Source: a virus (taxonomy: Duplodnaviria > Caudoviricetes). From it: DNA of 24,978 nt. The notes below the pieces were generated by a model that was not told the origin of the DNA, ran no database searches, and saw only the letters and a program-made list of their open reading frames with translations. Position numbers and translations under genes: made by a program. The stretch spans positions 1-24,978 of the IMG/VR virus record IMGVR_UViG_3300037420_002492. One strand, written 5' to 3'. Shown here in pieces: positions 1 to 20,280 of this stretch (positions within the stretch are counted from its first letter, which is position 1; each line of letters opens with the position of its first letter).

Positions 1-1767
1 TTAAAGCAGTGAAAATAGGTAGGTGGACTCACGCCCTTCTCTACTAGAATCACTAGGTTTAGCTCTATTCTCTCTAGCAATAGCCTCCAGTAAGCTGACA
101 TTCATTCCACTGGCTGCATTAGGAACAAAGCTTCCACTAGTATTAGTCTTAAACTGACCCCCTATGCCTGGAATCTTACTAAGTAAGTCAGTAAACCAGT
201 TTTTAATGGAGTCGAAGGTGTTAGAAGCTGCTGAAGTGATGTCATTCCACTTCGAACCAAGGAAGTTAGTCAGTTCACTAAACTTAGAGCCTATGAAACC
301 AGTGAACTCTCCTAGCTTGCCTGAGATGTAGCTAACGACTGAATTCCACACATTCATTGACTCTCTAATGTAAATGTCTGAGAGATTTTTGAGTGTGCTT
401 CCAATCAGATAGGCAAGGCCAATGAGTGCCCCGTCCACTACAGTCAACAGAACTTCTACAACTTTAAGGTAGTCGATCGTCTTGATATAACTGACTAAGC
501 CCTCAATAATTCCTCTGATGACATTATTGATTGTGCCTCCTAAAGCTAACCAGTTGATAGATTTGAAAAGGGAGAGTGCCCCTTCTAAGATTTGGTTAGT
601 TAATTTAGCTGAATTTTCACCTAGTCCTTTGGAGAAAGGAATAAAGTTGATTTTGCTTAATTGACTTAGGTAATTAGAAAAGGAATCTTGGAAATAAGTG
701 ACTATCCCTTTTCTCAGTTTGAAGTAATCAATCTTCTCATCTTTGGATTTAGGAGGAAGAAAGGTTTGATTAATGTCTTTTACAAAGTCCCTTAGAGATT
801 TAATGGTGCTATTGAATTTGAGAATTCCATTTCTGAGAGCCAGCATAGGGTCAAAAGTGAGCCCTAATGATTCAAGTGTTTTGGATAATTCAGTTAATAG
901 CCCATCATCCCCAATTAATAGGGAGAGAGATTCGTTGATGGCAGTCAGTACGGTCTGATTCCCTTTAGTTTTGGAATCCAAATCCCGCATCAATCCGAAT
1001 AAACCATTCGTTGGGTCGAATAGGTTCGATTTGAGAGATTCAATCAGTCCACTCACCGATCCTGAAGCAGCTTTAATAACTTCTGGAGTAACAAGCTGTT
1101 CACTAACTGCTTTCAGGATTTCTTTCCTCTCTTTAAGAGTTAGCTGCTCTAGCTTCTTTCCAGTACCCTCTAGTCTTTTCTCGACTAGGGCTAGGAATCC
1201 AGTATTGTTTTCAGCAAATAGTAAATTCTTTAATTCGGAGAGAGAGGCACCTCCTAGGAACTTGCCAGCGAACTTAGAAACATCCTTGGCAGCAGTTTGG
1301 CTAGAGGCTCCCAGAACCTCCATCCCTTTGGTGATCGTGATTAGTTCTTCCTCAAACCCTTTGGAATCAAAAGCTCCTGAAGCATCCTTAAAGGCCGGAA
1401 TGAGATTGTCTTGGATTCCTAAAGCTAAGGTTTTGTAGTCTTGGGTAGCTCCTGGTAGAGCTGCTGCCACTTCACCTAGTCTGGAGTTGAGACGATCGAT
1501 AAACTCCTCTCCATCGGAAAAGCTTTTACCCGTCAAGGCTGCAAATGTTCCGGCTGCTGAAGCATTATTCAACTGGAGTTCTGCAGCTTCTCCAAGACTC
1601 TTGGTGAGACTGCTTACAGCAGAGGTAGCAGCTCCGATCGCTGAAGTAATACCACTAGCCATTAGGTTTGCAGCTAAAGCATTTCCTCTAATGGATTCTC
1701 CTAGCTTTTTGAAAACAGGTGAGAAGGAATCCTGAGCAACGATCTCTGTAAAGATCTTATTAGTCAT
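1..1767 (-). CDS. Tail tape measure protein (588 aa, possibly C-terminally truncated)
   Basis: Follows tube and chaperone. Ala/Ser/Leu-rich helical sequence with ~11-residue W/F periodicity near the C-terminus (VWNSVVSYISGKLGEFTGFIGSKFSELTNFLGSKWNDI). SD AAGGAGG upstream. Confidence 0.8.
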   Translation of the reverse strand: MTNKIFTEIVAQDSFSPVFKKLGESIRGNALAANLMASGITSAIGAATSAVSSLTKSLGEAAELQLNNASAAGTFAALTGKSFSDGEEFIDRLNSRLGEVAAALPGATQDYKTLALGIQDNLIPAFKDASGAFDSKGFEEELITITKGMEVLGASSQTAAKDVSKFAGKFLGGASLSELKNLLFAENNTGFLALVEKRLEGTGKKLEQLTLKERKEILKAVSEQLVTPEVIKAASGSVSGLIESLKSNLFDPTNGLFGLMRDLDSKTKGNQTVLTAINESLSLLIGDDGLLTELSKTLESLGLTFDPMLALRNGILKFNSTIKSLRDFVKDINQTFLPPKSKDEKIDYFKLRKGIVTYFQDSFSNYLSQLSKINFIPFSKGLGENSAKLTNQILEGALSLFKSINWLALGGTINNVIRGIIEGLVSYIKTIDYLKVVEVLLTVVDGALIGLAYLIGSTLKNLSDIYIRESMNVWNSVVSYISGKLGEFTGFIGSKFSELTNFLGSKWNDITSAASNTFDSIKNWFTDLLSKIPGIGGQFKTNTSGSFVPNAASGMNVSLLEAIARENRAKPSDSSREGRESTYLFSLL

Positions 1768-1799
1768 GAAAGCCCTCCTTAGTGAGGGAGGGGTTGAAT

Positions 1800-2087
1800 C
1801 TAGTATTCATTGATTAATTCTTCGTATTCAATTTCCCCTAACTCAACTAGTGAAGGGTCAGTAGAGGTGGTTTGTTTATTCGTTTTCTTTTGTACAGAGA
1901 TGAATCTCTCCAGATGGAAAAGAGCTTCACTTATTTCAAGCTCTAATAACTGGAAGTAGGCCGGAGTGATAAAGCCTTCAGTCGAACAAAGAAATGATTC
2001 ACAAAGATCGGTAGCCGTGAAGACTCTATCCTGAACACTAAACAGGATTTTGTTTGTCTTGCAATTTACGAACAGCTCGAAAGCAAG
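1800..2087 (-). CDS. Start-less 95-codon frame; probable frameshift extension (lambda T-like part) of the tail assembly chaperone
   Basis: Open from 2087 to TAG at 1802-1800 in the +1 frame relative to 2038..2463. Contains no ATG/GTG/TTG and fills the gap before the tape measure gene. Confidence 0.65.
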   Translation of the reverse strand, partial: LAFELFVNCKTNKILFSVQDRVFTATDLCESFLCSTEGFITPAYFQLLELEISEALFHLERFISVQKKTNKQTTSTDPSLVELGEIEYEELINEY

Positions 2088-2463
2088 TTAGGGCAGAACC
2101 CACCCTCTCAATATCTTCAACCTCTAAAGTGTCTAGAAAATCCTCAAAGCTAGGAACAGTGCTCAATTTAGAGTTAAGGGGAATGTAACTCACCATGCAG
2201 GTATGAGCTAGCTTGATAGAACTGAATACATCCGATCGGTACTCTTCAGGAGCACTCTGATACCAGCTTTGGATCTGTAGAAACTGTTTGCCTTTAGGAG
2301 ACTTCAACTCAATTTGAGTGCCGTCATAAAGCTGAAAAGTAACTCTGTTTTCTAGCTCATCAAATTGAAGATTCACCGGATAACCTTCTGGGTTTGATTC
2401 CGGTTCAGTAGCTTCAGGGATCGGAGCCTGCTGCTGTTGGGGCTTATTTACTTTTAAGGGCAT
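2038..2463 (-). CDS. Tail assembly chaperone (lambda G-like, 141 aa)
   Basis: Small acidic protein between tube and tape measure, overlapped by a downstream start-less frame. Confidence 0.7.
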   Translation of the reverse strand: MPLKVNKPQQQQAPIPEATEPESNPEGYPVNLQFDELENRVTFQLYDGTQIELKSPKGKQFLQIQSWYQSAPEEYRSDVFSSIKLAHTCMVSYIPLNSKLSTVPSFEDFLDTLEVEDIERVGSALTCFRAVRKLQDKQNPV

Positions 2464-2509
2464 TTTATTTAACTGTTTACCTGATTGATATGGAGAGGAG
2501 GATTAAAAA

Positions 2510-2992
2510 TTAGAGATTAGAAGTGCTAGTGATGCTATTTGAATTTCCAGCAATGGAAACTTGATCAACACTAAAAACCATTTTGAGTTCGACGACCGAA
2601 TCACCGGAGCCAGTATCCATTGACTCAAAAACAGACCACTCAGAAACTCGACAGCCTGAGAGACTCCAAGCTGATTTACCTCGGAATTCCATCTGACCAC
2701 ATCGTTTCACCGGTCGGACGGTCATACTGAATGGCTCACCACATTCATGAGATTGCAGAAAGTCCAGAACTGGACCATCTCGATCGGGGTCATAAGCTTT
2801 GCTGAGGGTAACTTGCTCGATTTCTTGTGCTCCACTGGGAGCGCTCTTCTTGATATTGCTCAAGCCATCAGAGTACATGGCTCGATTGAATTTCTTTTTG
2901 ATGCCTGAGAATTTCGACCAATAACAGCTCAGCTCGTCCACCAGAAACAAGGCATCGGCATTGGTCATCGGAGTGGAGTTATCCAACTTCAT
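2510..2992 (-). CDS. Tail tube protein (160 aa)
   Basis: Directly downstream of the sheath. Size and beta-strand pattern (VTLSKAYD ... WSLSGCRVSEW ... VVELKMVFSVD) fit T4 gp19-like tubes. Confidence 0.75.
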   Translation of the reverse strand: MKLDNSTPMTNADALFLVDELSCYWSKFSGIKKKFNRAMYSDGLSNIKKSAPSGAQEIEQVTLSKAYDPDRDGPVLDFLQSHECGEPFSMTVRPVKRCGQMEFRGKSAWSLSGCRVSEWSVFESMDTGSGDSVVELKMVFSVDQVSIAGNSNSITSTSNL

Positions 2993-3023
2993 AAAAAAAA
3001 TTATCCTTAAATATAGGTATTTG

Positions 3024-3045
3024 AAGGAACCGATCGGGGTTCCTT
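3024..3045. other. Intergenic stem-loop AAGGAACC-N6-GGTTCCTT between sheath and tube
   Basis: Perfect 8-bp inverted repeat with no U-tract; possibly an mRNA stability or processing hairpin. Confidence 0.45.
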
Positions 3046-3058
3046 AGCTTGTATTTAA

Positions 3059-4516
3059 TTAGGCAGCTAAACCAGCTTGAGCCGATTCTTGTACCTGTCC
3101 GATCGGTACTTTAATGGTATTGATCAGAATTCTTTCTACACCTGGGCTGGTAGCTGCATAAACTTCCACCAGGACATTACCAAGCTGGAGATCGGCTGGA
3201 TCATTGTTAGTGAAGGAGCAAACAACTACGAAGGCATCCTGCTCAGTCTCTCCAAATAAGGCTTTATCCAGCCACAATCTTCGTAGAACTGCTCTAGCAG
3301 TACTCTCAATTCGAGTTAGAAGGACAGCCTGACCATCAATACTGGTAAACAAATCATTGTCAAAGGCAGATCGGAGAGTGCCATTGATGACATTCATGAT
3401 CACTCGGCTGACCGTTTGAATGTAAAGGGTGTCCGTCGATCGGGTTCTCATACCCCAAACCACAATTCCCTTATTCCTCAACGATCGGATCACATTAATG
3501 CCCGCAGGATTCAGAACTTCCTGATCCTGATTTACGTATTTGACATTGACGGCCTTCACTCCCTGGACTGGGTATTTGGCTCCTGCCATTGGTTGCTGGA
3601 AACCTTGTTCCTTAAATCTCTTGGTAGCTACTCCAGCTACTGCTGCTGAAGCTGGAACTACTCCACCTTCCAGATCGGAGAGGTAGGGAGCATAGTAAGC
3701 TGAATGACCTTTGGGGCTTGCATAAGTGGCTGCTTCAGCTTGTAGTTGAGCCACTGTTTGGATAGCTGGACCACAATCTGCAAGGTGCATCCAGTCATAG
3801 CCTTCAGCAGATACTAGATTCTGACATGCACTGTAAACAGCTAGACGATCGGAGGCTGAAGTTAGAAGCTGATAGGCTTCAGGTGCAATCAGAAACCCTT
3901 GAGCATAATCATCATCTACATCAAAGCTGTGCTCGATCGAATAGACATAATCTACTGACGAGGGAGTGGTAGCAGCAACAGTAGTAACAGTCATTGCTCC
4001 GGCTGAAGCTGTAACTGTAAGGACTGCTGCAGGATCGTCAGCTACAATAATCAACTCATCAGAAGCACTTCCTGCAATGGCTGTAACAGCACTGGAGACT
4101 AGGTTAGAAGTGTTAATGGCATCAATTAACCCTGACACAATAGAGTCTTTAGTAGGGCTTGAGGGAGCTGTATAGGTAACAGCACTTCCATTAATGGTTA
4201 GGGTATAAGCTCCTGCTGTAGCCGTGTCGATGACCACTTTCTTTCTAGCTGCAATATTACTTCTGACAAAGTAAAGGAGCCCACTCCAATCATTTCTGAA
4301 GTAGAGTTTGACTGATGCCTCAGAAGGAGAGTTGCTGAACTGATTCGTGAAATCTTCTAACGATCGGACTAGGGTTGGGGTGTTGTATGCTCCACTTGAA
4401 GCACTCCCGATCATGTAAACAGTTTGAAAGCTGGCTAAGTCGGTGGGAGATGACCCTGCCGAAGTCTCTACCACCTTGACTCCTGGTCGTTTGAAGTTTG
4501 AGAAAAGAATAGACAT
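3059..4516 (-). CDS. Contractile tail sheath protein (485 aa)
   Basis: N-terminal RPGVKVVE; PTLVRSLEDF; PASAAVAGV; LNPAGINVIR..GIVVWGMRT; LWLDKALFG..AFVVVCSFTNN..LQLGNVLVEV, all typical of phage sheath families. Confidence 0.93.
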   Translation of the reverse strand: MSILFSNFKRPGVKVVETSAGSSPTDLASFQTVYMIGSASSGAYNTPTLVRSLEDFTNQFSNSPSEASVKLYFRNDWSGLLYFVRSNIAARKKVVIDTATAGAYTLTINGSAVTYTAPSSPTKDSIVSGLIDAINTSNLVSSAVTAIAGSASDELIIVADDPAAVLTVTASAGAMTVTTVAATTPSSVDYVYSIEHSFDVDDDYAQGFLIAPEAYQLLTSASDRLAVYSACQNLVSAEGYDWMHLADCGPAIQTVAQLQAEAATYASPKGHSAYYAPYLSDLEGGVVPASAAVAGVATKRFKEQGFQQPMAGAKYPVQGVKAVNVKYVNQDQEVLNPAGINVIRSLRNKGIVVWGMRTRSTDTLYIQTVSRVIMNVINGTLRSAFDNDLFTSIDGQAVLLTRIESTARAVLRRLWLDKALFGETEQDAFVVVCSFTNNDPADLQLGNVLVEVYAATSPGVERILINTIKVPIGQVQESAQAGLAA

Positions 4517-4548
4517 TTTATTTAACTAATAAATAAATTAGGGATGGA

Positions 4549-5184
4549 TTAGTTTGGATTGGTGAGGTGAATCTCTCTATCCAACTCATAATCGGAGGGG
4601 CTATTAAGATTGAAGTTAATCTTGGCTTTGTTAATCTTGAGTGCTAAGTCACTCACAACAAGAGGAGGGGCATCTGGATTAGGAACTGGGGGTTCAAAAT
4701 CTGGATTCAGTTCTAGTGAGGTGACATTGAACTCAAAGCTAAAGCTGAAGTTGCAATAGGCTAGCCAATCTCCCTGATCGCCCTCCTCACGAGAAATGAC
4801 CAAAGGATTATTGTTGGCTTCAAACTGAACGCTAGAGATTGAGCATCCAGGATTTTCGAGTAGAGCCTTTCCTTGAATGTATTGAACAAGGGACTCTAGT
4901 TCACTGAGGGGCAATTCATCTAGCGTAAGCTCATCCGAATACCTAAAGACGATCGAGTAAGGGAAGGTACCCGATCCTTTTATTGAATTAGAACCTGTCC
5001 GAAAGTAAAGTAGATTTTCTACTGGATATTCAATACCGGTATTAGCAGGAAGGAGATTAAGTTCGGTTGAGTGAATTGAATAGAGTTCTCTAGGAGGATC
5101 GGCATCCCAACTATCGATTCTGATTTGAGTTTGAAGCCAAGCCTTTACTTGAATCCTCACCTCTTTAATGTTGGAGTCAGCCAT
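4549..5184 (-). CDS. Putative tail terminator / neck protein (211 aa)
   Basis: Position between neck genes and sheath; stop/start overlap at 5184. Function inferred from synteny only. Confidence 0.5.
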   Translation of the reverse strand: MADSNIKEVRIQVKAWLQTQIRIDSWDADPPRELYSIHSTELNLLPANTGIEYPVENLLYFRTGSNSIKGSGTFPYSIVFRYSDELTLDELPLSELESLVQYIQGKALLENPGCSISSVQFEANNNPLVISREEGDQGDWLAYCNFSFSFEFNVTSLELNPDFEPPVPNPDAPPLVVSDLALKINKAKINFNLNSPSDYELDREIHLTNPN

Positions 5185-5621
5185 TAGTCCGTCTCCTTGG
5201 CAAGAATTAAAGAGAATACGATCGGATCAGAGTCCATCAAGTGAATAAGCTTGCAAGGAATTCCACCCTCAATAGATTTGGTGACTTGATTTGAGTAAAC
5301 AACGGCACCAGTTGAATCTAGAGGGGGGTCGATAATGAAACTGACTCTTGCCTTGGTAGGACTGATAAACGTGGAAAGGGGATAGACCCTGGGAATCTCT
5401 ACTTGATAGTAAGAAGCTTTGATAGTGACATTCCCTACAGGCAATCCAACTAATCTAGGGCTTACATTCGTGATGTGGCTTGAGATCAGGGTGTCTTCAG
5501 GAAGTTTACCTTGAAGCTGATTTCTAGCCAGTAGGAACCTACGTTGAGGAAGCCCTAAAACACTTTCCACTTTGTTGAGATTCACTTCAAGCTGGGCCAG
5601 CTTCTCGAATAATTTGGTCAT
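5184..5621 (-). CDS. Putative head-closure / neck protein (145 aa)
   Basis: Tightly packed in the head-tail joining block; function from synteny only. Confidence 0.45.
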   Translation of the reverse strand: MTKLFEKLAQLEVNLNKVESVLGLPQRRFLLARNQLQGKLPEDTLISSHITNVSPRLVGLPVGNVTIKASYYQVEIPRVYPLSTFISPTKARVSFIIDPPLDSTGAVVYSNQVTKSIEGGIPCKLIHLMDSDPIVFSLILAKETD

Positions 5622-5623
5622 TT

Positions 5624-5947
5624 CTAACTAAGGGCTTTTGGAATATTTCGATCGAGCTGTAGGTTGAGAAAGTCTTGGATTTGAGCTTCCGATCGGAACA
5701 TCATTCCCACTCTCCTCTCTACATAGGGGGCGTATTTAACCTGATTGAAGATACTGATCGAGTCAGTACCTTGCTTAGCAGATTCCCACCCCCTTCTCAA
5801 ATTGCCAGTTCTGACAGGAGTTCGATCTTGAATCAGTCCCTTGCCATACTGGGCTGTTTGATTGAGAGAATCATCTACTGCTTTTTTGAAATGAGAATTA
5901 GGATTTTGATGAAGGGGGCCGGTAGCTTTGAAGGTGACTTGAAGCAT
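5624..5947 (-). CDS. HK97 gp10-family neck protein (107 aa)
   Basis: Signature TPVRTGNLRRGW followed by NQVKYAPYVE. Confidence 0.85.
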   Translation of the reverse strand: MLQVTFKATGPLHQNPNSHFKKAVDDSLNQTAQYGKGLIQDRTPVRTGNLRRGWESAKQGTDSISIFNQVKYAPYVERRVGMMFRSEAQIQDFLNLQLDRNIPKALS

Positions 5948-6319
5948 TTACCAGTAACTCACATGACCTGAGGGTTGAGGGCAATATTTACTTCTAGCAA
6001 TGGGAATACCAGTCATCTGTGAGATCTCTTGAATGGCTCTATTCCCTTCAGATTTCAGTTGTGAGACATGAGCAAAATAGTTTAGTTTGGCACTTCTACT
6101 ACCTTGCACATAGCTAAGCTCTCTGGCTTCTTTGATTTGGGTGTCGATCGTAGCAATCTCATCTAAAAGGTTTAGAGCCTGCTCATAGACAGCTAAAGTG
6201 TATTCTTGCTGTAGAAAAGCATTCATTCTATTGAGATTTACTTCTGCAAACTGTTGAGTGGAACCCCCATACCCCAACACCATTAGAATTTTGTCAATGT
6301 CAAGTTGATTAAATTGCAT
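5948..6319 (-). CDS. Putative head-tail adaptor (123 aa)
   Basis: First gene after the capsid; small and helical; synteny. Confidence 0.5.
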   Translation of the reverse strand: MQFNQLDIDKILMVLGYGGSTQQFAEVNLNRMNAFLQQEYTLAVYEQALNLLDEIATIDTQIKEARELSYVQGSRSAKLNYFAHVSQLKSEGNRAIQEISQMTGIPIARSKYCPQPSGHVSYW

Positions 6320-6320
6320 A

Positions 6321-6353
6321 AAAAGTAAATTGGCTAGAGGATGAGTCTAGCCA
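6321..6353 (-). terminator. Probable intrinsic terminator after the major capsid gene
   Basis: TGGCTAGA-N7-TCTAGCCA (6331-6353) followed on the minus strand by ATTTACTTTTT. Confidence 0.55.
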
Positions 6354-6369
6354 TTTATAAAATTAGAAA

Positions 6370-7356
6370 TTAAGCTGTAACTCCAGTAATGACACCTACA
6401 GATCGTCTTTCCATTAATGCAAGTTGGAACATTCCATAGAGAGCAAATTTAACTTCTTGAGGGTTATCACTGGGCATCTCTTTTGCATAAATCAGCAAAC
6501 CTGCTTCAGGTCTATCTTGAGATCCACCTTCATTAGTCTGACGGAAGCTATAGAGTCTCAAGTCATTCTCATTCACAAAGTAAATGACTCCATCTGGAAC
6601 TGAGACATCTTCTACAATGGGACGACCTTCAAAAGTCAGTCCTCTTACCCCCAAATCTGCAGGACTGGTGTAATTAGCAGAAATAACAGTAGCTCCATCA
6701 AATGCTCCTGCATAAATCAAAGCAGTTGCAGGATTCATCACTAAAGCCGTGAAAGTAGCTGGAACTCCAGTCGTAGTGCCTTGTCTATAATCTGCAGAGA
6801 AAGCTCTCAATTTAGCTTTAGTCAGAGAACCAAAAGTTGTAGAAACTAGAGTAGTCCAAGCTGCATCCACAGCAGGATCTAAACCAGCATAAGCAACAGT
6901 AGACTTTTTAGCTGTTACTGCACTATGTAGAGAACCTAGACCTAGCACTCCACCATAGTTACTGCCAGTTCCTAGAAAGATACCAGCACCTAAAGTTTGT
7001 AGAATTTCTCTCTTAGCCCCTTCTGAAGAGAGATTAATCAGATTACCCAAAGGAGCTTCACCTTGAGAAGCCATTTCAGCAATCTGAACTTCATTGATTG
7101 AAAAGCTAGAACGCACTCTGTAAGTGCCAATAGGTAATTGAGCAGGCTTAATGGTATCTGCACTAGTAGAAGTAACATCTGCTGTTACTAATTCAGTACT
7201 AGCAGTAGCACCTGCTACATTGACGTTGTACTTTACTGCTGTCTGTGCAGTGCTATATCTAGAAATTCGACCTAGCATAGGGCAATTCAATTGGTCTAGT
7301 TCAGCCAATTTAGGCTCAATAGAAAGATTGATTGTTCCCGAAGTATAAATAGCCAT
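6370..7356 (-). CDS. Major capsid protein (HK97 fold expected, 328 aa)
   Basis: After scaffold. GIFLGTGS...GVLGL, LVMNP and LTFEGRPIVEDVSVPDGVIYFVN patterns typical of phage capsid proteins; strong codon bias. Confidence 0.85.
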   Translation of the reverse strand: MAIYTSGTINLSIEPKLAELDQLNCPMLGRISRYSTAQTAVKYNVNVAGATASTELVTADVTSTSADTIKPAQLPIGTYRVRSSFSINEVQIAEMASQGEAPLGNLINLSSEGAKREILQTLGAGIFLGTGSNYGGVLGLGSLHSAVTAKKSTVAYAGLDPAVDAAWTTLVSTTFGSLTKAKLRAFSADYRQGTTTGVPATFTALVMNPATALIYAGAFDGATVISANYTSPADLGVRGLTFEGRPIVEDVSVPDGVIYFVNENDLRLYSFRQTNEGGSQDRPEAGLLIYAKEMPSDNPQEVKFALYGMFQLALMERRSVGVITGVTA

Positions 7357-7389
7357 AAATATTTAAAAATTAAATGGAATTAAAGAAAA

Positions 7390-7995
7390 TTATTTGTTGA
7401 TAATTGCACCAGCAATTGCTGATCCAATTGAATTGTTATTAGAAACAGATTTGGTTGTAGCAGGAGCAGATTTACTTTCTGTAGATCCAGATCCATTCAC
7501 GTTTGAAGGAGGAAGGAACAGCTTCCCGTCTTCACTGGAGAGATAGCTATTCAAAAGATCGTCAAGAAACTGAGCTTGACCGTCTTCTGACTTGTAAATC
7601 CACCGATTGTTTTCCTGTTCAAGGGAAGCCTCATACTCCACCGAAAAGAGCTTTTGTAGGACATGCTTGTTAGTAGCTTTGGAGCCTGCTATTGCCTCAG
7701 AAATGGCAGCTTTTCTTTGAGCCTCTAAGGCTTTTTGCTCCTTCTGTTGCAACTGATTGTTTAAATCAGCAATCTGTTGATGAAGAACTTTGAGGGTCAG
7801 CTTACTCTCTTCTTTCTCAGGATCTTCCGATCGTTGAGCTTCAGGTTGACTGACTCTTTCCAGCTTCTTAGTCACATCCTTAGTAAGTGAAGCAGCAAAC
7901 TTGCCGTTCTCCTTACGGACTTCAGGAAGGAGCATTTCTTCAATCAGGCTTGGAAATACTTCCTTGAAAATTTCGATAATCTGTTCTTTGTCCAT
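7390..7995 (-). CDS. Capsid scaffold protein (probable start ATG at 7995, 201 aa)
   Basis: Between portal and capsid; Glu/Lys/Gln-rich coiled coil with a C-terminal NGSGS low-complexity tail. Confidence 0.7.
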   Translation of the reverse strand: MDKEQIIEIFKEVFPSLIEEMLLPEVRKENGKFAASLTKDVTKKLERVSQPEAQRSEDPEKEESKLTLKVLHQQIADLNNQLQQKEQKALEAQRKAAISEAIAGSKATNKHVLQKLFSVEYEASLEQENNRWIYKSEDGQAQFLDDLLNSYLSSEDGKLFLPPSNVNGSGSTESKSAPATTKSVSNNNSIGSAIAGAIINK

Positions 7996-8087
7996 GATCG
8001 TTTTCTTATGAAAATAAGTGTTTGCCGTTAAGACCCCTGGCAATAAGGGGTATCTGGTACTGTTAGCCTCACAGTTGGCTAGACATT

Positions 8088-8112
8088 AAAAAAGCTCCGA
8101 TCGTAAGGAGCT
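8088..8112 (-). terminator. Intrinsic terminator after the portal gene
   Basis: Minus strand AGCTCC-TTACGATC-GGAGCT followed by a T-run. Confidence 0.55.
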
Positions 8113-8123
8113 AAAGAAAGTGA

Positions 8124-9617
8124 TTAAGTACTCGACATCTGTTCAATCTCGGCTTCTAACTCAGCTTGAAGTTTGGGAGGAAGGTTCCCGATCATGAAGT
8201 CACTGAGCCTAGAATAAACAGACTTAAACAAGATCGGAGGTAAGTTAGCCCGGAGAGAATCAATATTAAGGTCGGACAACACCTGCACTTGGCTGATGAA
8301 GGTGTCAACATGATCGGATTGGAATCTGTTTAAGCCACTGACGGAGAGCTGAGGATTGACTCCTTGTGATCTAGCAACTAGCTGGTAGACATCTTCCAGG
8401 ACATCAACGAGGAAGGTTCCATAGCTCTTGAGGGTGTCTTCCTGCTCCTGAAAGTCAAAAGCCTTGGATAAGCCACTCTGCTCGACAGCACCTTTGGTGG
8501 AACCACTCACTCCACCTTGATTGATCAACGATCGGACTTGAGCCTCTAACTGCTCCAGGGATTTCTCCAGTTGAGGAAGAATCTTACCTTCAGCTTCCTT
8601 CCAATCAAAATCACCTCCTTGAAGTACATACTGCAATCCGGTCGGAGGTGGAGATCCATCAACGTAAGAGGAACTCAGATCGGAGTCAGGAGTGAGTTGA
8701 GGCTTCCAGGTTCGTTGAACGTAGAGGAAGGTTTCCAGATCATGCTTATGGCAGGAAACCCTCAGGTGGGCTAAAGCAATATTGACAACCTGATCACCTA
8801 CCCACAGATCAGCAGGAAGCTCAGCCAGAATCAGAGGTGTCGTTCCTAAGCTATGAGAGACTGGCTCAGACTCTAAGGGGATCTTAGTATCCTTGTTGAT
8901 CGGAACAAACTCACCTTTTGAATCCAGGATAGAAACAATCTGACCATCCCGACTAAACTCAAAGATGCCACTGTACTTGACGATCGATTGATTGTCGATG
9001 AAAGTCCAAGTGACCTTGTTCAGTGGAGGCTTAAGGGGGCTTTCCTGATACACAGAGACTTGCCTTAGCTTGACCCACTTAGGCTTATGAGGACCTTCCA
9101 ATTCCCAAGCAATCACCTGATCGGCAGGATAGAGATTGATGTAAGGTCTTAGTCCGAGTGCTTCTTCCTGAGCTTTGTTTGTCGGTCGGATCGGACTGAA
9201 GGGTTTTTCGACATGCAGCCAAACTCGTTTGAACTTCAGACACTCCGAAAGGATTTCAGCAACTAGTTCTTTCTCATCACGTTTTCCATAGAGGTCAGTT
9301 GCCGATCGGAATGTCTGCCAGAAGTCAGCATCTGATTCAGCAGTCATAACCTCTAGGCTTCCATTCTCCAGCTTAGAGACTTGGCTATTTAGGGTTGAAG
9401 CAAGGAGGTTGATATAGAGGAACTTACTGAGCCGGTGCTTGTAAATTTGAGGGTCTTCACTCGGCCGTTGAGGAAGGTACTCAGCTATTCGAGACTCAAG
9501 CTGGTGGCCTCCTTGGTACAAGTCATTGATTTTCGTGAAGGTAGGGAGTAGATCGTTGAACTCAGGTGAAGTGGTTTCTAGGGTGGAGAGTTCTAATTCA
9601 GTGGGATAAACGAACAT
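8124..9617 (-). CDS. Portal protein (497 aa)
   Basis: Immediately after terL. DLYQGG...YLPQRPSED..IYKHRL N-terminus and EQSGLSKAFD motif typical of portals. Confidence 0.85.
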   Translation of the reverse strand: MFVYPTELELSTLETTSPEFNDLLPTFTKINDLYQGGHQLESRIAEYLPQRPSEDPQIYKHRLSKFLYINLLASTLNSQVSKLENGSLEVMTAESDADFWQTFRSATDLYGKRDEKELVAEILSECLKFKRVWLHVEKPFSPIRPTNKAQEEALGLRPYINLYPADQVIAWELEGPHKPKWVKLRQVSVYQESPLKPPLNKVTWTFIDNQSIVKYSGIFEFSRDGQIVSILDSKGEFVPINKDTKIPLESEPVSHSLGTTPLILAELPADLWVGDQVVNIALAHLRVSCHKHDLETFLYVQRTWKPQLTPDSDLSSSYVDGSPPPTGLQYVLQGGDFDWKEAEGKILPQLEKSLEQLEAQVRSLINQGGVSGSTKGAVEQSGLSKAFDFQEQEDTLKSYGTFLVDVLEDVYQLVARSQGVNPQLSVSGLNRFQSDHVDTFISQVQVLSDLNIDSLRANLPPILFKSVYSRLSDFMIGNLPPKLQAELEAEIEQMSST

Positions 9618-9619
9618 AG

Positions 9620-10882
9620 TTAAGCGGCGTTTCTATTCAGGTCGTGTTTCATCTCAACGATCGGGATGACATATCTAAACGAGTCCAGGTCATGGTCAGA
9701 TTGACCGTCAGCAGGCTTTTCCAGGACGTTACCTTCCCGGTCTTGAGCCTTGTGATAAGACCGAATGTTCTGAATCAACTGCTCTAAAGGTCGATAAACA
9801 AACAATCTGTTTTGGTAGAAAAGACTGTTGATAATTCCGATCCCCTCCAAGACACCAGGCTTATTTCGAGGAGATGTGACCGCTCTCTTCAGTCCCGGAA
9901 TATCTCTGGCATTACCTAGTCTTCTAAGAGCAATGACAACTGAGGGTCGATCGTCAGGAACATAAACCCGATGGGCATTATGTTTTACACATAGGTTGAG
10001 AACAGCTTGATTGACTTCATCCGAGGTTATTGGAGATTGTGGATGGGAGTTATACCAGGCATCAATCAGAAAGTAACGATCGGAACTGATTCCGATCACT
10101 GTAGCTGCCGGATTAGTCTCTCCATGATCCAGACCCACCAGAACATCATCGAAGGAAGGTAGGATGTCCACGATATGGGAATCATCGAACTGATCGTAAA
10201 ACTGACCAGAGAAAGTCTCCCAGCTAGCTTCAAACTCCTGTGAGTAGGTTTTAGGTGGCAGGATAAGCTTGGCTTGTTCCCTGAGTGACCGAGGATGAAA
10301 AGGGTTGTCAGCAGAAATGAAGCTGAAGTAAGCCCAGTTAGGAGTCTTCAAAGCTCGAAGATGAAACTGGTAAAAGAAGGAACTCTTACCTTTTGGTGTG
10401 CCTACGATCGTGGCTCCAAACTGACCTGTCGGATCTCTAAAACAAGGGGTAATGATTTCGTCCCAAGTGCTAGAAGGAAACAGTTGGAACTCTTCAGCAC
10501 CAGCCCAAACTAAATTCTTACCTCGAATCTTTTCACCACCATCATCCACACCAGCTAGGGAAAGGATTGGTAGATCACCGTGAAAGTAAATCTTGTAGCC
10601 ACTCCGATCGATCCTCTTAGTGACTGGACAGTTCTCAAACAAAGCCAGTAGGCTATCCCAGTGGAGGGATTTGCACATCTTCAAGGTCGGAGCAATCAAG
10701 CAAACCTCTTGAGGAGATTCAGGGTCGAATTTACCCTTGAAGGTGAAGATGGCTTTGATGGCTTCAGCTCTAAGCAGCCGACTCTTCCCCCAACCCCGAC
10801 CGGAACAAATCACTTTGACATTAGCAGGGTGATTCAGAACCTCGTATTGAGAGGAATGCAGGTTGATAGAAAGCTTATTCAT
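9620..10882 (-). CDS. terL: Terminase large subunit (probable start ATG at 10882)
   Basis: Walker A GRGWGKS; IRG..LVWAGAEE Walker B region; GTPKG coupling motif; nuclease VGLDHG and DHDLDSFRY. Start overlaps the terS stop. Confidence 0.93.
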   Translation of the reverse strand: MNKLSINLHSSQYEVLNHPANVKVICSGRGWGKSRLLRAEAIKAIFTFKGKFDPESPQEVCLIAPTLKMCKSLHWDSLLALFENCPVTKRIDRSGYKIYFHGDLPILSLAGVDDGGEKIRGKNLVWAGAEEFQLFPSSTWDEIITPCFRDPTGQFGATIVGTPKGKSSFFYQFHLRALKTPNWAYFSFISADNPFHPRSLREQAKLILPPKTYSQEFEASWETFSGQFYDQFDDSHIVDILPSFDDVLVGLDHGETNPAATVIGISSDRYFLIDAWYNSHPQSPITSDEVNQAVLNLCVKHNAHRVYVPDDRPSVVIALRRLGNARDIPGLKRAVTSPRNKPGVLEGIGIINSLFYQNRLFVYRPLEQLIQNIRSYHKAQDREGNVLEKPADGQSDHDLDSFRYVIPIVEMKHDLNRNAA

Positions 10883-11357
10883 CAACACCTTCTTCCAGCT
10901 CAGGAGGTTCAGCAAGCCCGAATATGACCTGGAAGGAATTACCGGTATTCTGATCGTCCGATTTAACCTGACCTAGTACCCTTTCTAGAATTTGAGGAGT
11001 CGGTAGCACCTGTTCGACCGATGACAGTTGATGCACTACACCATTCCGATCGAGCACCTCTCTCATAGACCAACGAAAAGCTTTACCAGCTAGAACGTTG
11101 TGAATGTAACTCTCAGCCAGTTCTTTCTGAGCACCGAGTTGACTCTGCTTAAAGGTTAAAAAGTCTTGACGGGCTTTCTCAACATTCTCATTAAATTCAG
11201 GGTAGAGAGAAATCCATTTGTAAAAGGTTTGATGACTGACATCATTCCTTTCATAACCAAGACGATCGGAGCCAGTCTCCCGAATAGTTTGGCAAATAGC
11301 TTCTACAAGGTCTGAGGTATATCGACTCTTTCGACCTCCGGTTTTGGGTTTAGTCAT
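10875..11357 (-). CDS. terS: Terminase small subunit (160 aa)
   Basis: GRKSRYT..LVEAIC, then HTH-like VSHQTFYKWI..YPEF...VEKAR; directly upstream of terL. Confidence 0.8.
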   Translation of the reverse strand: MTKPKTGGRKSRYTSDLVEAICQTIRETGSDRLGYERNDVSHQTFYKWISLYPEFNENVEKARQDFLTFKQSQLGAQKELAESYIHNVLAGKAFRWSMREVLDRNGVVHQLSSVEQVLPTPQILERVLGQVKSDDQNTGNSFQVIFGLAEPPELEEGVDE

Positions 11358-14477: not shown

Positions 14478-14684
14478 ATGACTATGACTAACGAAGTTAT
14501 TCCTACCGATCTGATCTCGACTAAAAAAGCTGCTGAAATGTTTGGATTTAAAGACGGTTCTGCTGTTCGATACTACGTCACTACTAATCGAATCAAGGGC
14601 TACAAGAACAGAAAAGGGTTTATGTTCATTTCCGAATCTGAATTTAGAGATGTGCTACGTCCCGACTTCCAATCGGTCAATTAA
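14478..14684 (+). CDS. Excisionase-like (HTH_17/MerR-type winged helix) DNA-binding protein (68 aa)
   Basis: LISTKKAAEMFG...SAVRYYVTTNRIKGYK....MFISESE fits the Xis/HTH_17 pattern. Confidence 0.7.
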   Translation: MTMTNEVIPTDLISTKKAAEMFGFKDGSAVRYYVTTNRIKGYKNRKGFMFISESEFRDVLRPDFQSVN

Positions 14685-14732: not shown

Positions 14733-14847
14733 GAAAAACCCACCTCTCCTTGCCGGGAAAGATGGGTTCAGAAAACCTAAATAATTGCTCAACTGAATAA
14801 CTAGTCACTCGGACAACTGAATAACCAATTACTCTGACAATTGAATA
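14733..14847 (-). ncRNA. Predicted antisense RNA (~115 nt) against the polB leader
   Basis: Minus-strand extended -10 TGTGCTAAAAT (14863-14853). Minus-strand hairpin AACCCATCTTTCC-CGGCAA-GGAGAGGTGGGTT plus T-run (14768-14734), whose two G-U pairs form only on the minus strand. Confidence 0.5.
14790..14847 (+). repeat. Imperfect 24-bp tandem repeat (about 2.4 units) before the polB start
   Basis: CAACTGAATAACTAGTCACTCGGA / CAACTGAATAACCAATTACTCTGA / CAATTGAATA at 14790, 14814 and 14838. Confidence 0.75.
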
Positions 14848-14849
14848 CT

Positions 14850-17636
14850 ATGATTTTAGCACAGAATTCTGCTCAAGAAACGGTCAAAGTTCAAGCTGCA
14901 TCTACCTCTCAAGTTACAGATGCTAATACTGAACTAAAAGAGAAGATTTACCTGGCGATCGATGCTGAATGGGACCCTTCAAAGAACCTTGATCTCTGCT
15001 GTACGATGAGCCTTCAAGGTGGTCCTAAAGCCGTGTTTTTGAACAGCTACATTCAAGATCATGTCTCTCCTGAAGTCTTTGATCGTATTCGAGCTATTGC
15101 TTCTCAGTGGGCTCAACAACGGGGTGTGAATCTGTATTGGCTTCCGTTCGACGATCGGATGGATTTGATCAACTACTTTCTTTCTGACATCAGCCTCGAT
15201 GTCAAGAATGTGAATCTGAGAATGTTCTACTCACCTAGAGATCTGACCATTGGATTTGGTTTTGATCAAGTGAAAGACTATTACAAACGGAACTGTTCCA
15301 GAACCGGTATTCAGCAACGTCGTAATGTCTCTGCTTATGCCCTTCCGATCGGTGACTATAAGTTTACTATCATGGATCTGAAAGGTTTGCAGCCGATCGG
15401 AGGTCTAAAGGATTTGGCTAAATCTGTCGGATATGAAATGCAATCCAAATCGGACATGGATGAGTACAAGAGCAACATGCTTGAAGGTTTAATTCAAGAA
15501 ACTGAGAAGTTTTTGGATTATGCTTTAGCTGATGCTGAAGACTTGCATATCATCCACGATCTTTTCAACATGTATGTTCGGGATAAGGTGTGTAAGGACA
15601 TCCTCGGTGTTGAATTTGTTGATGATATTCCAATGACGACCGGTTCTTTGGAGGCTAGAGTTTTCCAGCAGTGGCTTCATAACCTTGCTGGCAATAAAAA
15701 TGCTTTTGAATTTGCCATTCGAAAGCTTGGTCTATTAAATACCGGTTCTAAAACTGCTAAGAAGGATCGGATCAAGTTCAACGAGGTGATTGATAGCATT
15801 ACTTCTGTTGTTGACTTGGATGCTAATCCTGAAGCTTCTCTTGACCTGAGCCGTATTGATTTTCAATCGAACGGATATTCTCAGGCTTCTGTACTGTCTC
15901 TAGCTCGACACTCTACGACTGCTGCCTTCAATGCCCTTGTTCACGGTGGAAGATGTAATAACGAAAATCCTTTTGCCTTTTCAATCGACTGTGCTGGAGC
16001 CGATATCGACCTTCAGGGCTGTTATGGAAACTCTCTAGCTAAGTTTACCTATCCAATCGGATTACCTACCTTGTGGGGTTTTACTGAGAATCAGAAACGT
16101 CTTACCCTCAAGCAATGGTTAGACAAGAATGAATCCGATCTTCATCTTGGTTTGTGGCAAGTCGTTGTCTCAGGAGAGCTTCCTTTCTCACAGGACTTGA
16201 TTTATTCCAAATTGGTCTCCCTCAATCAGATTCACAAAGTTGCTTTTGGTGGATGGGAAAAGGAGGAGAACCATGTTGGAAGTAGTGAAATCCGGGACCA
16301 CGATCTGCAACATATTCCTGGTGAGTTTGCTTTGATCCGTAATGAGCTTGAAAACGGCATTATTACCAGTGATTTACTGCAAGCCATCCGACAAGTTTCT
16401 ACCGATCGTGAGTTGAATGCTTGGATGAAGCTTGAAGTCGTTTGTGCTGCAGGTTATAAGCTCAGTGATCAGGTTGAAACTATCGACGAATGGAGTGCTG
16501 CCGTCATTTCTGATAAGGGTCAGTACGAAACGGTGAAGGGTAATGCAGCCCTTATCAAAGACGAAAGAACCAGAAAGTGGGTTGGAATTCCGATTGGAGA
16601 TTTTATTGGTCCGTTAGTCAGTAAACGATTGGGTATTAAGCAGTTGGCTAAATCCAATAAGGATCTGAAGTCTCTGGATTTGATGCTTAAATTGTTCATC
16701 AACACCTTGTATGGTTGTCTGGCTTCAATTTACTTCCCGATCGGCAATGCTATTGTTGCTAATAACATCACAGGTCGTGCTCGATTGGGAGCTTGGATGA
16801 TTAATAAAGCTCTTTGGACTAGACAATCGATCACGGATGGTGGGATTTACCAGCTTTCTGAGGTTCCTTTTCTCACTAACTCCGATCGTTTACCTGGCTT
16901 TGATGTTTTATCCGACTGTAGTAGATGGATTGATCACCGTAGAAAGAATAGAACGATCGGAAGCTTAGGAAATATCGACTGGAATTCCCGTGTCTTCAAA
17001 GGAATGACCGAAGCCCTGAAGGATCTTTCCGAGGAAATTGATGGGATAGCCCTTCAGCATATCAACCAGTTTTGGGGTAGCTACGATCTTCAGCTTCCTT
17101 TCAACGTTGAGCATAAAGAGGAGCACTTCTTCACCCGTGCTGCTTACTGGTCAAAAGCTCACTATGCTTTGGATTTGGTTCAGCCTTGCCTTAATAAGTA
17201 CACGGGTGAATTTACCGATCGTCACTTCATCATTCGAGGAGTCAAGACCTACAAAGAAGACTCCGGGCTTAAGATGAGTCCCGTGTTTGACTTGCTATCC
17301 AACATTCTTGAGGGTGCTGACGGATTTCCGATCGACCTGGAATACGATCACTTTTACCTGATGAGGGTTGGGAAGTATGCCCAGCTTCAGAGTAGCTCCA
17401 GTGAATCTGAGCTTAAGAGTAAGCGGCCTGGTGATGAAGTCATTGAAGAGAGAATTCAACGATTCAACAACACCCACCTTCCGATTGCTTCGATTGCTGA
17501 GTTTCGAAGCCGAACTGATCGGAAGACCTTCAGAACTTCTAAGGGAGAGAAGGTGAGGATTCCATTCTTTGAAAAGTTCGGTCCGAAAGGAATTTCCTAC
17601 GTTCACAGGATGATGTTGGACGATCGACTCAAGTAA
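14850..17636 (+). CDS. Family B DNA polymerase with 3'-5' exonuclease, piPolB-like (probable start ATG at 14850, 928 aa)
   Basis: ExoI YLAIDAEW; ExoII-like FYSPRD; ExoIII YALAD; HGGR; motif A DIDLQGCYG; motif B KLFINTLYG; motif C SITDGG; KAHY. Confidence 0.85.
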   Translation: MILAQNSAQETVKVQAASTSQVTDANTELKEKIYLAIDAEWDPSKNLDLCCTMSLQGGPKAVFLNSYIQDHVSPEVFDRIRAIASQWAQQRGVNLYWLPFDDRMDLINYFLSDISLDVKNVNLRMFYSPRDLTIGFGFDQVKDYYKRNCSRTGIQQRRNVSAYALPIGDYKFTIMDLKGLQPIGGLKDLAKSVGYEMQSKSDMDEYKSNMLEGLIQETEKFLDYALADAEDLHIIHDLFNMYVRDKVCKDILGVEFVDDIPMTTGSLEARVFQQWLHNLAGNKNAFEFAIRKLGLLNTGSKTAKKDRIKFNEVIDSITSVVDLDANPEASLDLSRIDFQSNGYSQASVLSLARHSTTAAFNALVHGGRCNNENPFAFSIDCAGADIDLQGCYGNSLAKFTYPIGLPTLWGFTENQKRLTLKQWLDKNESDLHLGLWQVVVSGELPFSQDLIYSKLVSLNQIHKVAFGGWEKEENHVGSSEIRDHDLQHIPGEFALIRNELENGIITSDLLQAIRQVSTDRELNAWMKLEVVCAAGYKLSDQVETIDEWSAAVISDKGQYETVKGNAALIKDERTRKWVGIPIGDFIGPLVSKRLGIKQLAKSNKDLKSLDLMLKLFINTLYGCLASIYFPIGNAIVANNITGRARLGAWMINKALWTRQSITDGGIYQLSEVPFLTNSDRLPGFDVLSDCSRWIDHRRKNRTIGSLGNIDWNSRVFKGMTEALKDLSEEIDGIALQHINQFWGSYDLQLPFNVEHKEEHFFTRAAYWSKAHYALDLVQPCLNKYTGEFTDRHFIIRGVKTYKEDSGLKMSPVFDLLSNILEGADGFPIDLEYDHFYLMRVGKYAQLQSSSSESELKSKRPGDEVIEERIQRFNNTHLPIASIAEFRSRTDRKTFRTSKGEKVRIPFFEKFGPKGISYVHRMMLDDRLK

Positions 17637-17722: not shown

Positions 17723-17756
17723 GGGGGTCATGATCGGTAATCATGACCCCCTTTTT
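17723..17756 (+). terminator. Intrinsic terminator downstream of polB
   Basis: Perfect 12-bp stem GGGGGTCATGAT-CGGTA-ATCATGACCCCC followed by TTTTT. Confidence 0.85.
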
Positions 17757-17887: not shown

Positions 17888-18008
17888 AGGTAGCTTAAAT
17901 TCTCTTGTCAATGTGTAATTTATTTTTGTGGGTGGAACATTAAGCACGTCCAAATAGTTAGGTAGAGTAGGTTGGGGTTTTTGGCTATGTTCCCCAGCCT
18001 ATTTTTTT
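17888..18008 (+). repeat. Copy 1 of a diverged ~120-bp direct repeat ending in a terminator (sRNA-like)
   Basis: Aligns with 18338-18456; ends TAGGTTGGGG...CCCCAGCCTA-T7. Confidence 0.75.
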
Positions 18009-18337: not shown

Positions 18338-18456
18338 AGGTAGCTTGAATCCTCTTTCCATTGTCTAATCCTGCTAGAACAGTGGAACGTTAAGCAAATC
18401 CAATTAGTTAGTCAGCGAATAGGTTGGAGTTTTGACTTTTCCCCAACCTATTTTTT
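18338..18456 (+). repeat. Copy 2 of the ~120-bp direct repeat (450 bp downstream)
   Basis: Shared blocks AGGTAGCTTRAATYCTCTT, GTGGAACRTTAAGCA..TCCAAWTAGTTAG and TAGGTTGGRG...CCCCARCCTA-T6. Confidence 0.75.
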
Positions 18457-18892: not shown

Positions 18893-20071
18893 TTAATCCA
18901 CAGGTTTGATTGATTTCAGCTTCAGGACATCGGCATAGACCCGCTCGATCATTTCAACACTGCTATCAACCCACTTAGCTAGGACAAAAGCCGAAACACC
19001 TTTCAGCAATTGCAAGGTGATGAAGGTATCCCTAGTGTTGTAAAGAGTCGTGCCAGGTTTGATCGGATCGACTAACCGAACCCAGGCTGTCTTGGCAAAA
19101 TTAGACCGATTAATGGGACCACCTCTCTTACCTGGAAAGATCAGTAAGCCTGGATTGACTGAGGCAGGCTTAATACTAACTAAAAGAGCTTGAAGCTTGG
19201 GAGAACACGGAAAGACACGAGTTCTGTTGTTTTTGGAGCCTGCCGTTTGTATCCACCTGTTATGCGAATAGATCAGTGAACCGTTGAACTCGATTTCATC
19301 ACAATCGGGCGATACATTCCCCCACTTCAAACCAATAACCTCCGAAGTACGAGCACCAGTCAGAAAGAGGGTTTTGACAAGGGGAGTGTAGTAGCTATAA
19401 CGGTGTCCCGTGTGGATTTTTCCGTTCCAGTTACCCCGGTGTTGTTCAAAAGCCTGGATTACCGATTGCATCTCCTCTTCACTAAAGGCATTCGGCTTGG
19501 GACTGAGTTGATAGTTAAAGGCTGGCAGCTCGGCAGCCATACCAGCATAAGGACTGAGATGGGTATCCACGATCAGTTTGTGTTTAATAGCCCACTTCAC
19601 GGCTGCATTAAGCTCAATCAGAATCCTTTTAGTTTGATGATTCGTAGTGATGGATTGGAGCTGCTCTCTCACCACAAGGGCATCTAAGCAATCTAAATGA
19701 CCGATCTTGGCAATCTGACGACCGTACCACTCAATGAGGATTTGAGAGGTTTCCTTACGACTTACTTGCTTGTATTTCTGGTATCGTTCCCAAAGTTCTC
19801 CCAACGTAAGGGGTTTGTGGATCACGATCGGAGTTTCTACCTTGCTAACTTTGTACTTCTGCAAGGTGGAATCAAAACATCCATTCAGGTAATCCAGTTC
19901 CACTTGTTTGGAAATCTGTTCTGCCAAAATCCAGTTTTCACGAGCGTCACTCAATCCTAGAGTGAAACGTTTCTGCTCTCCACCAAACCATTCACGGGGA
20001 AGAGTCAGTCTTAATCTGCCGGAATTCGACTGCACATTAACTCTACCCTTAACCCTCTTTGATACCTTCAT
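18893..20071 (-). CDS. int: Tyrosine recombinase / phage integrase with cyanobacterial arm-binding N-terminus (392 aa)
   Basis: GRLRLTLP...KRFTLGLSD arm domain; LFLTGARTSE (Arg I), SKN (Lys), YNTR (Arg II), MIERVY (Tyr); adjacent to a tRNA. Confidence 0.93.
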   Translation of the reverse strand: MKVSKRVKGRVNVQSNSGRLRLTLPREWFGGEQKRFTLGLSDARENWILAEQISKQVELDYLNGCFDSTLQKYKVSKVETPIVIHKPLTLGELWERYQKYKQVSRKETSQILIEWYGRQIAKIGHLDCLDALVVREQLQSITTNHQTKRILIELNAAVKWAIKHKLIVDTHLSPYAGMAAELPAFNYQLSPKPNAFSEEEMQSVIQAFEQHRGNWNGKIHTGHRYSYYTPLVKTLFLTGARTSEVIGLKWGNVSPDCDEIEFNGSLIYSHNRWIQTAGSKNNRTRVFPCSPKLQALLVSIKPASVNPGLLIFPGKRGGPINRSNFAKTAWVRLVDPIKPGTTLYNTRDTFITLQLLKGVSAFVLAKWVDSSVEMIERVYADVLKLKSIKPVD

Positions 20072-20209: not shown

Positions 20210-20280
20210 AGCGGGCAGCGAGAATCGAACTCGCATCAATAGCTTGGAAGGCTATGGTTTTACCACTAAACTATGCCCGC
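20210..20280 (-). tRNA. tRNA-Gly (anticodon TCC); probable prophage att target
   Basis: Reverse complement GCGGGCA TA GTTTAGTGGTAAAAC C ATAGC-CTTCCAA-GCTAT TGAT GCGAG-TTCGATT-CTCGC TGCCCGC T forms a full cloverleaf; CCA not encoded. Confidence 0.97.

Follow-up and report, generated by a model that had tools for sequence, protein, structure and literature searches.

A PolB_SITDG-family DNA polymerase encoded in a tailed-phage provirus, a candidate self-priming replicase

The polymerase locus and its prophage setting

The window considered here is the whole of a 24,978-nucleotide stretch of the viral record IMGVR_UViG_3300037420_002492 (Duplodnaviria; Caudoviricetes), which is classed as a provirus and listed as 36% complete (G000; the value for G003 is 57%). 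From position 1 to 11,357 the minus strand carries a myovirus-like structural operon encoding the small and large terminase subunits, portal, scaffold, capsid, neck, sheath, tube and tape measure proteins, with the tape measure gene cut by the window edge. Two low-GC open reading frames (ORFs) of 247 and 95 amino acids lie between 12,604 and 13,637; neither has a convincing Pfam or PHROG family, nor a homologue in related loci. On the plus strand, a 68-amino-acid HTH_17 protein (14,478–14,684; Pfam E 0.003, below the cut-off) is likely an excisionase or regulator, and in G298 a homologue precedes a related polymerase. The DNA polymerase gene (P0001; 14,850–17,636, plus strand) encodes 928 amino acids from an ATG codon, or 931 from an alternative TTG start at 14,841. 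A hairpin with a 12-bp stem downstream of it (17,723–17,751) is a candidate terminator or origin element, and the 1-kb non-coding stretch between the polymerase and integrase genes holds a 120-bp duplication in the form of two imperfect direct repeats (17,888–18,007 and 18,338–18,456; 73%) with no Rfam match. An Rfam scan of the window returned a tRNA only, the tRNA-Gly(tcc) at 20,210–20,280 (minus strand), which is the likely integration site of the adjoining tyrosine integrase (18,893–20,071, minus strand; phrog_1, E 9e-33). The GC content is 43% before this tRNA gene and 51% beyond it.

The polymerase gene is situated between the leftward structural operon and the integrase, and its GC content equals that of the operon (43.4%). 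The prophage is read as cyanobacterial; the hexamer CGATCG, the core of a cyanobacterial repeat, occurs 74 times in the window. A second provirus (L028) carries a polymerase 40% identical to the query together with homologues of five tail-region proteins of the window; because this pairing of polymerase and tail module recurs, the gene appears to be part of the phage rather than a neighbour of it. No Toprim, Prim-Pol or DnaB domain was detected in the record of the window or in that of L028, both of which are incomplete, and the Toprim model detected a primase in a third record that served as control. A search for DNA motifs common to the non-coding flanks and the related loci found none (best E 0.02), and no origin could be assigned.

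Domain architecture and catalytic motifs

The AlphaFold model of the 928-residue protein (pLDDT 91.5, pTM 0.90) has family B DNA polymerases as its top structural matches; a Pfam search with the query returned no family, PF00136 being without a match, and phmmer found no match in the PDB. All motifs described here are encoded on the plus strand. The chain begins, with no long N-terminal domain ahead, with a 3'-5' exonuclease domain (14,946–15,605; residues ~33–252) that finds matches among exonuclease folds. The acidic residues that the initial annotation had recorded for it can be placed at D38-x-E40 (ExoI), D131, D176 and D228, the last accompanied by Y224 in ExoIII.

Residue conservation was counted across 195 homologues, from which rows of 780 amino acids or fewer had been removed beforehand. 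The GGR pre-A motif and motif A (15,945–16,025) were correctly located as HGGR (residues 365–368) and DLQGCYG (387–393), and the motif A residues D387 (194 homologues) and Y392 (all 195) are nearly invariant, but H365 is His in only 14 of 103 homologues and Gln in 59 of the 103. Motif A is followed by a large β-rich insertion at the TPR1 site (16,047–16,592; residues ~400–581 of the model), for which the structural matches of the model suggest a possible TPR1-like fold. In a whole-chain comparison, phi29 polymerase aligns with the query model over 496 of 571 residues. The distance between motifs A and B, earlier put at about 220 residues, is 227 from the motif A Asp to the motif B Lys.

Motif B (K614-x3-N618-x2-Y621-G622; K614 in 193 of the 195) and an eight-residue loop span 16,689–16,748, the loop joining model helices 604–625 and 634–655. 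The TPR2 insertion of primer-independent (piPolB) and protein-primed (pPolB) polymerases is situated between the motif B Tyr and the Thr of the Tx2G/AR motif. In the query this interval, from Y621 to T641, is 20 residues long, as it is in 22 of 22 circle-borne copies, and TPR2 is absent. An insertion is thus present at the TPR1 site, where 206 residues separate the motif A Asp from the pre-B Arg, but not at the TPR2 site.

Motif C, SITDGG (16,827–16,844; residues 660–665), contains a single Asp, D663. T662 is conserved in 193 homologues, and D663 and G664 each in 194, whereas position 661, aligned with the first Asp of the canonical YxDTDS, mostly holds Ile (183; Val 9, Ala 2, Tyr 1) and holds Asp in none, which upholds the initial reading of a motif C without its first Asp. 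Thr is likewise found at this position in none of the 195, and the piPolB-type SxTTDG is not encountered. Downstream, E754-H-K756 (17,109–17,117) would place its Lys in register with the piPolB lysine of priming and translesion synthesis (TLS). K756 is present in every ungapped row: 193 of 195 homologues (two gaps), 24 of 25 (one gap) and all 22 copies borne on circles. The KAHY sequence (17,154–17,165; residues 769–772) does occupy the KxY site, with its Tyr conserved and a small residue at the position of the KxY Lys, but H771 is His in 70, Asp in 105 and Asn in 17 of the 195. The free variation of H365 and H771 rules out either His as a family motif, and the proposal that KAHY is a Lys/His motif of the piPolB type had chosen the wrong motif. 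From its fold and full motif set, the query is an intact-looking family B polymerase with predicted proofreading activity.

The PolB_SITDG family

With S660-I-T-D-G664, in which a hydrophobic residue replaces the first motif C Asp, the query fits the definition of PolB_SITDG, and its sequence almost certainly places it in this family. PolB_SITDG is a cluster from cyanobacteria and algae with 10 members in Table S2, tied by CLANS to the main primer-requiring group and omitted from the phylogeny (Kazlauskas et al. 2020; PMC7544198). Three homologues (P0013, P0014 and P0054), identified with Table S2 entries by length and by the first 60 residues given there, are 34–42% identical to the query (E 1e-126 to 1e-200). 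An earlier study (Lee et al. 2016; PMC4814812) had grouped homologues of Pp6859 orf4-orf5 in a “novel POLBc” clade, with members from a planctomycete, Marchantia mitochondria, a plasmid of a red alga, and the genomes and plasmids of cyanobacteria. Shared taxa, and a maximum length of 1,242 amino acids that is also that of the L039 protein, indicate that this clade is probably PolB_SITDG. The family is already known as a sequence cluster, with a name that dates from 2020 and a probable first notice in 2016. In their available sections, the two accounts do not assign the family a tested function, connect it to piPolB, or report it from prophages or minimal replicons. A literature search, outside which lay most subscription journals and bioRxiv supplements, found no functional study of PolB_SITDG and no link of the family to piPolB, prophages or one-gene replicons; among the papers listed, “SITDG” in the polymerase sense appeared in PMC7544198 only.

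The family far exceeds the published lists, as the query profile retrieves 875 clusters (50% identity) at E <1e-30. Its distribution is patchy, with members in 8 of 401 cyanobacterial genomes and also in planctomycete assemblies. The closest named homologues of the query are cyanobacterial, and a search of GenBank phages returned no match to it. Like the query, the published cluster has a hydrophobic residue where motif C would carry its first Asp, and it is known from cyanobacteria and from algal and liverwort organelles. The members in planctomycete assemblies (L007, L008 and L010) lie near tRNAs, and in L007 an integrase, an HTH protein, the polymerase and a capsid gene are found within ~8 kb in a satellite-like arrangement. 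Fragments of PolB_SITDG genes amid psbA/psbD-type and secA genes (L194–L196) probably belong to algal plastid genomes.

Relationship to other family B polymerases

In profile-profile comparisons PolB_SITDG is nearest to the piPolBs (E 1.6e-21 and 2.3e-24), ahead of RNA-primed polymerases (rPolBs; 1e-6) and pPolBs (5e-5), and the region of the query that best matches a piPolB is the exonuclease domain. The tree, built from an automatic alignment of 416 columns with 42 of 77 reference rows, separates PolB_SITDG and piPolB as distinct clades (values 100/98 and 99/95). With small reference sets (10 rPolBs and 12 pPolBs, archaeal and eukaryotic enzymes being absent), 1000 bootstraps group PolB_SITDG with rPolBs in 545, with piPolBs in 453 and with pPolBs in 1, and an AU test rejects neither the rPolB nor the piPolB sister placement (p 0.47). 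PolB_SITDG is a clade apart from all three groups. A profile search of the PDB that ranked Pol alpha and archaeal PolBs on top was rejected as evidence for rPolB kinship because a true piPolB profile also puts archaeal PolBs first, and no listed entry is named piPolB.

The likeness to the piPolBs of pipolins extends to a single motif C Asp, colinear exonuclease and palm motifs, an insertion at the TPR1 site, a Lys two residues after the post-C Glu, and occurrence on integrase-bearing elements and small circles (PMC5695915). K756 is the putative equivalent of piPolB K613, an invariant Lys for priming and TLS (PMC5695915), by sequence register rather than by superposition on a piPolB model. The differences are a motif C of ITDG against TTDG, a TPR1-site insertion of 206 against 130–145 residues, and a post-motif-B spacing of 20 against 36–38 residues (two piPolBs, judged by eye), together with the separate clade and the residence of PolB_SITDG in tailed prophages and hairpin plasmids. 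The KH-X8-KTRG motif was sought in the query and is absent, with E-H-K...K-A-H-Y in its place and neither KH nor KTRG. The query is not a piPolB, given its own clade and its lack of a TPR2 insertion and of KH-X8-KTRG. The initial placement on “a branch of or near” piPolB consequently holds for nearness, by profile score, the register of Lys756 and the primase-free minimal replicons described below, and fails for membership, against which the divided support for a sister group also speaks.

It is improbable that the polymerase is nonetheless a true piPolB of a cyanobacterial subclade, carried by a pipolin that co-integrated with the prophage. The best profile match, the single-Asp motif C, the integrase beside a tRNA and the reported precedent of pipolin-prophage co-integration (PMC11551731) would agree with such an origin, but the two clades are separate, TPR2, TTDG and KH-X8-KTRG are all missing, the same tail module accompanies the polymerase in L028, and gene and operon are of one GC content. 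Moreover, pipolins are described as a piPolB with an integrase and no virus genes (PMC5695915), whereas a head and tail operon is present here and also in L028. Among the 401 cyanobacterial genomes no clear piPolB was found; two of three weak matches are PolB_SITDG genes.

The tightest whole-chain superposition of the query model is with phi29 polymerase, and pPolBs (phi29, PRD1, Bam35) share with it the N-terminal exonuclease and an insertion after motif A. Priming by a terminal protein in the manner of phi29 would also be consistent with viral fold matches and with Atlas matches to PF03175, which for residues 360–680 score <0.9 and serve as leads only. This explanation is nevertheless highly improbable, as pPolBs attract the family in a single bootstrap, their post-motif-B interval is 44–63 residues against 20, and the query lacks TPR2, DTDS and the KxY Lys. 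In addition, pPolBs serve linear genomes with terminal proteins; the query is integrated and its relatives reside on circles and telomere-resolvase plasmids, which offer no free 5' ends for such a protein.

The rPolBs (T4 gp43, E. coli Pol II, Pol alpha/epsilon) share with the query motif B, the 20-residue link to Tx2G/AR and a Lys three residues before the KxY Tyr. The query differs from them in its lack of a long N-terminal domain, its single motif C Asp and a post-motif-A insertion 135–150 residues longer, and PolB_SITDG differs in that primase, helicase and clamp genes are usually absent nearby. A cyanobacterial PolB of ~690 residues, present in two copies in one genome (L146 and L151, G294), has an intact DTDG, groups with a Salinibacter phage rPolB and also carries E-x-K (as E-x-K-H), so a Lys of the K756 type is not diagnostic.

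Small circles, hairpin-ended plasmids and other relatives

A search of 72,556 plasmid records gave 10 matches, all cyanobacterial. Four of these are circles of 4.6–5.9 kb whose sole large gene, one TnpB aside, is the polymerase. Two linear plasmids carry an annotated telomere resolvase, a third a homologue 62–70% identical, and one plasmid recorded as circular a protelomerase. Among 110 further loci, many of them cut windows of longer contigs that are unable to close, 22 close into circles, and 16 of these 22 contain an intact polymerase and no other ORF of at least 200 amino acids. Identity above 80% is seen in just two pairs, and each of the 22 copies retains the 16 residues that were checked. 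A domain scan of 328 chosen ORFs of related loci (133, 96 and 99; six are polymerases themselves), a selection rather than all ORFs, found many integrases and telomere resolvases and no Pfam Rep family.

It is quite improbable that the enzyme has an accessory role in repair or lesion bypass, or is cargo, while the host replisome copies the element. Lesion bypass is known for piPolB (PMC5695915), and some copies of the gene are chromosomal beside integrases and some are broken (L010 and L003), but its standing as the sole large gene on many circles devoid of a Pfam Rep, with the checked residues intact in all 22, speaks against this.

On 17 of 27 circles there is also a basic protein of ~95 amino acids that belongs to no Pfam family and could be an origin-binding, initiator or copy-number protein. 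It is missing from the other 10, including L009 and L167, the two closest to the query, and no homologue was matched in the window. Its example at L033:3598–3882, with relatives in 29 loci, has a GRP-rich N-terminus. In L029, a 152-kb low-GC phage record, the polymerase adjoins DnaG and two helicases, lying on the strand opposite to an operon of ThyX, DnaG, and PIF1-like and DEAD helicases. A HerA-type ATPase is present in L169, and weakly matched ATPases in L014, L021 and L002 could be helicases.

Elements of ~5–27 kb that combine the polymerase with a telomere resolvase or homologue (L037, L038, L040, L039, L013, L014, L030, L173, L179, L180, L191, L197 and L202) look like hairpin-ended phage-plasmids or satellites. 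The named ones are cyanobacterial, several carry a terminase large subunit, none has a capsid detectable by Pfam, and three of the contigs have terminal inverted repeats. Conserved proteins of 145–200 amino acids adjoining the polymerase (L037:8378–8812, L038:4316–4765, L040:9036–9476, L014:3431–3943 and L026:5846–6361), some acid-tailed and with no Pfam match, appear by eye to be possible single-strand binding proteins. A patatin with a DncV-like nucleotidyltransferase, a CBASS-like pair, lies ~7 kb from a related polymerase (L001:19928–22630).

Proposed role in replication

The polymerase is very probably the dedicated replicase of its own element. Many 4–6 kb circles have no other large gene, so the polymerase likely copies the element that bears it, and it may start strands without a separate primase. 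Circles and hairpin ends are unlikely to use a terminal protein, and a primase accompanies the gene at one locus only, which leaves self-priming or priming by the host or a partner. That the enzyme starts DNA strands by itself, in the manner of piPolB without being one, has about an even chance.

Upon induction, the integrase and the small HTH protein would excise the element from tRNA-Gly as a circle. The metals would be coordinated by D387 and by D663, the sole Asp of motif C, one such Asp being sufficient in piPolB (PMC5695915). Lys756 may stabilize the first nucleotide as a DNA primer is laid on exposed single-stranded template, possibly at a site in the non-coding stretches flanking the polymerase gene, and the predicted exonuclease would proofread. 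As TPR2 is lacking, unwinding would have to come from the enlarged TPR1-site insertion, the thumb or a host helicase. The terminase and portal would package the product.

On small circles, host DnaG or a transcript can supply the primer. A replicase that needs a primer from outside, whether from host DnaG, a transcript or R-loop, or a nick or hairpin end opened with the aid of a small partner, is a serious if less probable alternative. The split tree, with its 545 of 1000 bootstraps toward rPolB, the rPolB-like spacing that leaves no TPR2, the CLANS link, the non-diagnostic Lys found also in a DTDG-type PolB, the DnaG and helicases beside L029, and the ~95-residue partner of 17 of 27 circles all count against self-priming and in most cases speak for such a primer. 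Conversely, profile kinship to piPolB lies ~15 orders of magnitude above that to rPolB, 10 of 27 circles lack the partner, which is also unmatched in the window, and a wholly host-primed circle would presumably have less need of an intact 3-kb polymerase.

Beyond self-priming itself lies a broader proposal, held tentatively and at somewhat less than even confidence, that PolB_SITDG is a fourth major PolB lineage between the primer-requiring and primer-independent groups, that it primes de novo without TPR2, and that it may constitute the whole replication apparatus of an unrecognized class of cyanobacterial replicons that takes in one-gene plasmids of 4–6 kb, linear phage-plasmids with hairpin ends, and tailed prophages.

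Implications

De novo priming has been reported for one PolB group only (PMC5695915). If shown for PolB_SITDG, it would make the family a fourth PolB lineage and a second deep lineage capable of such priming, one that mixes the piPolB-like TPR1-site and lysine features with an rPolB-like post-motif-B link. It would provide a direct test of the parts required for priming and strand displacement, bear on how the ancestral PolB was primed, by RNA, by protein or not at all, and open hundreds of diverse, predicted proofreading enzymes to amplification work. The natural 4.6-kb plasmids lend themselves to in vivo tests and could serve as a minimal replicon in cyanobacterial vectors. Even if self-priming fails, the family points to a way in which Rep-less cyanobacterial plasmids may be copied.
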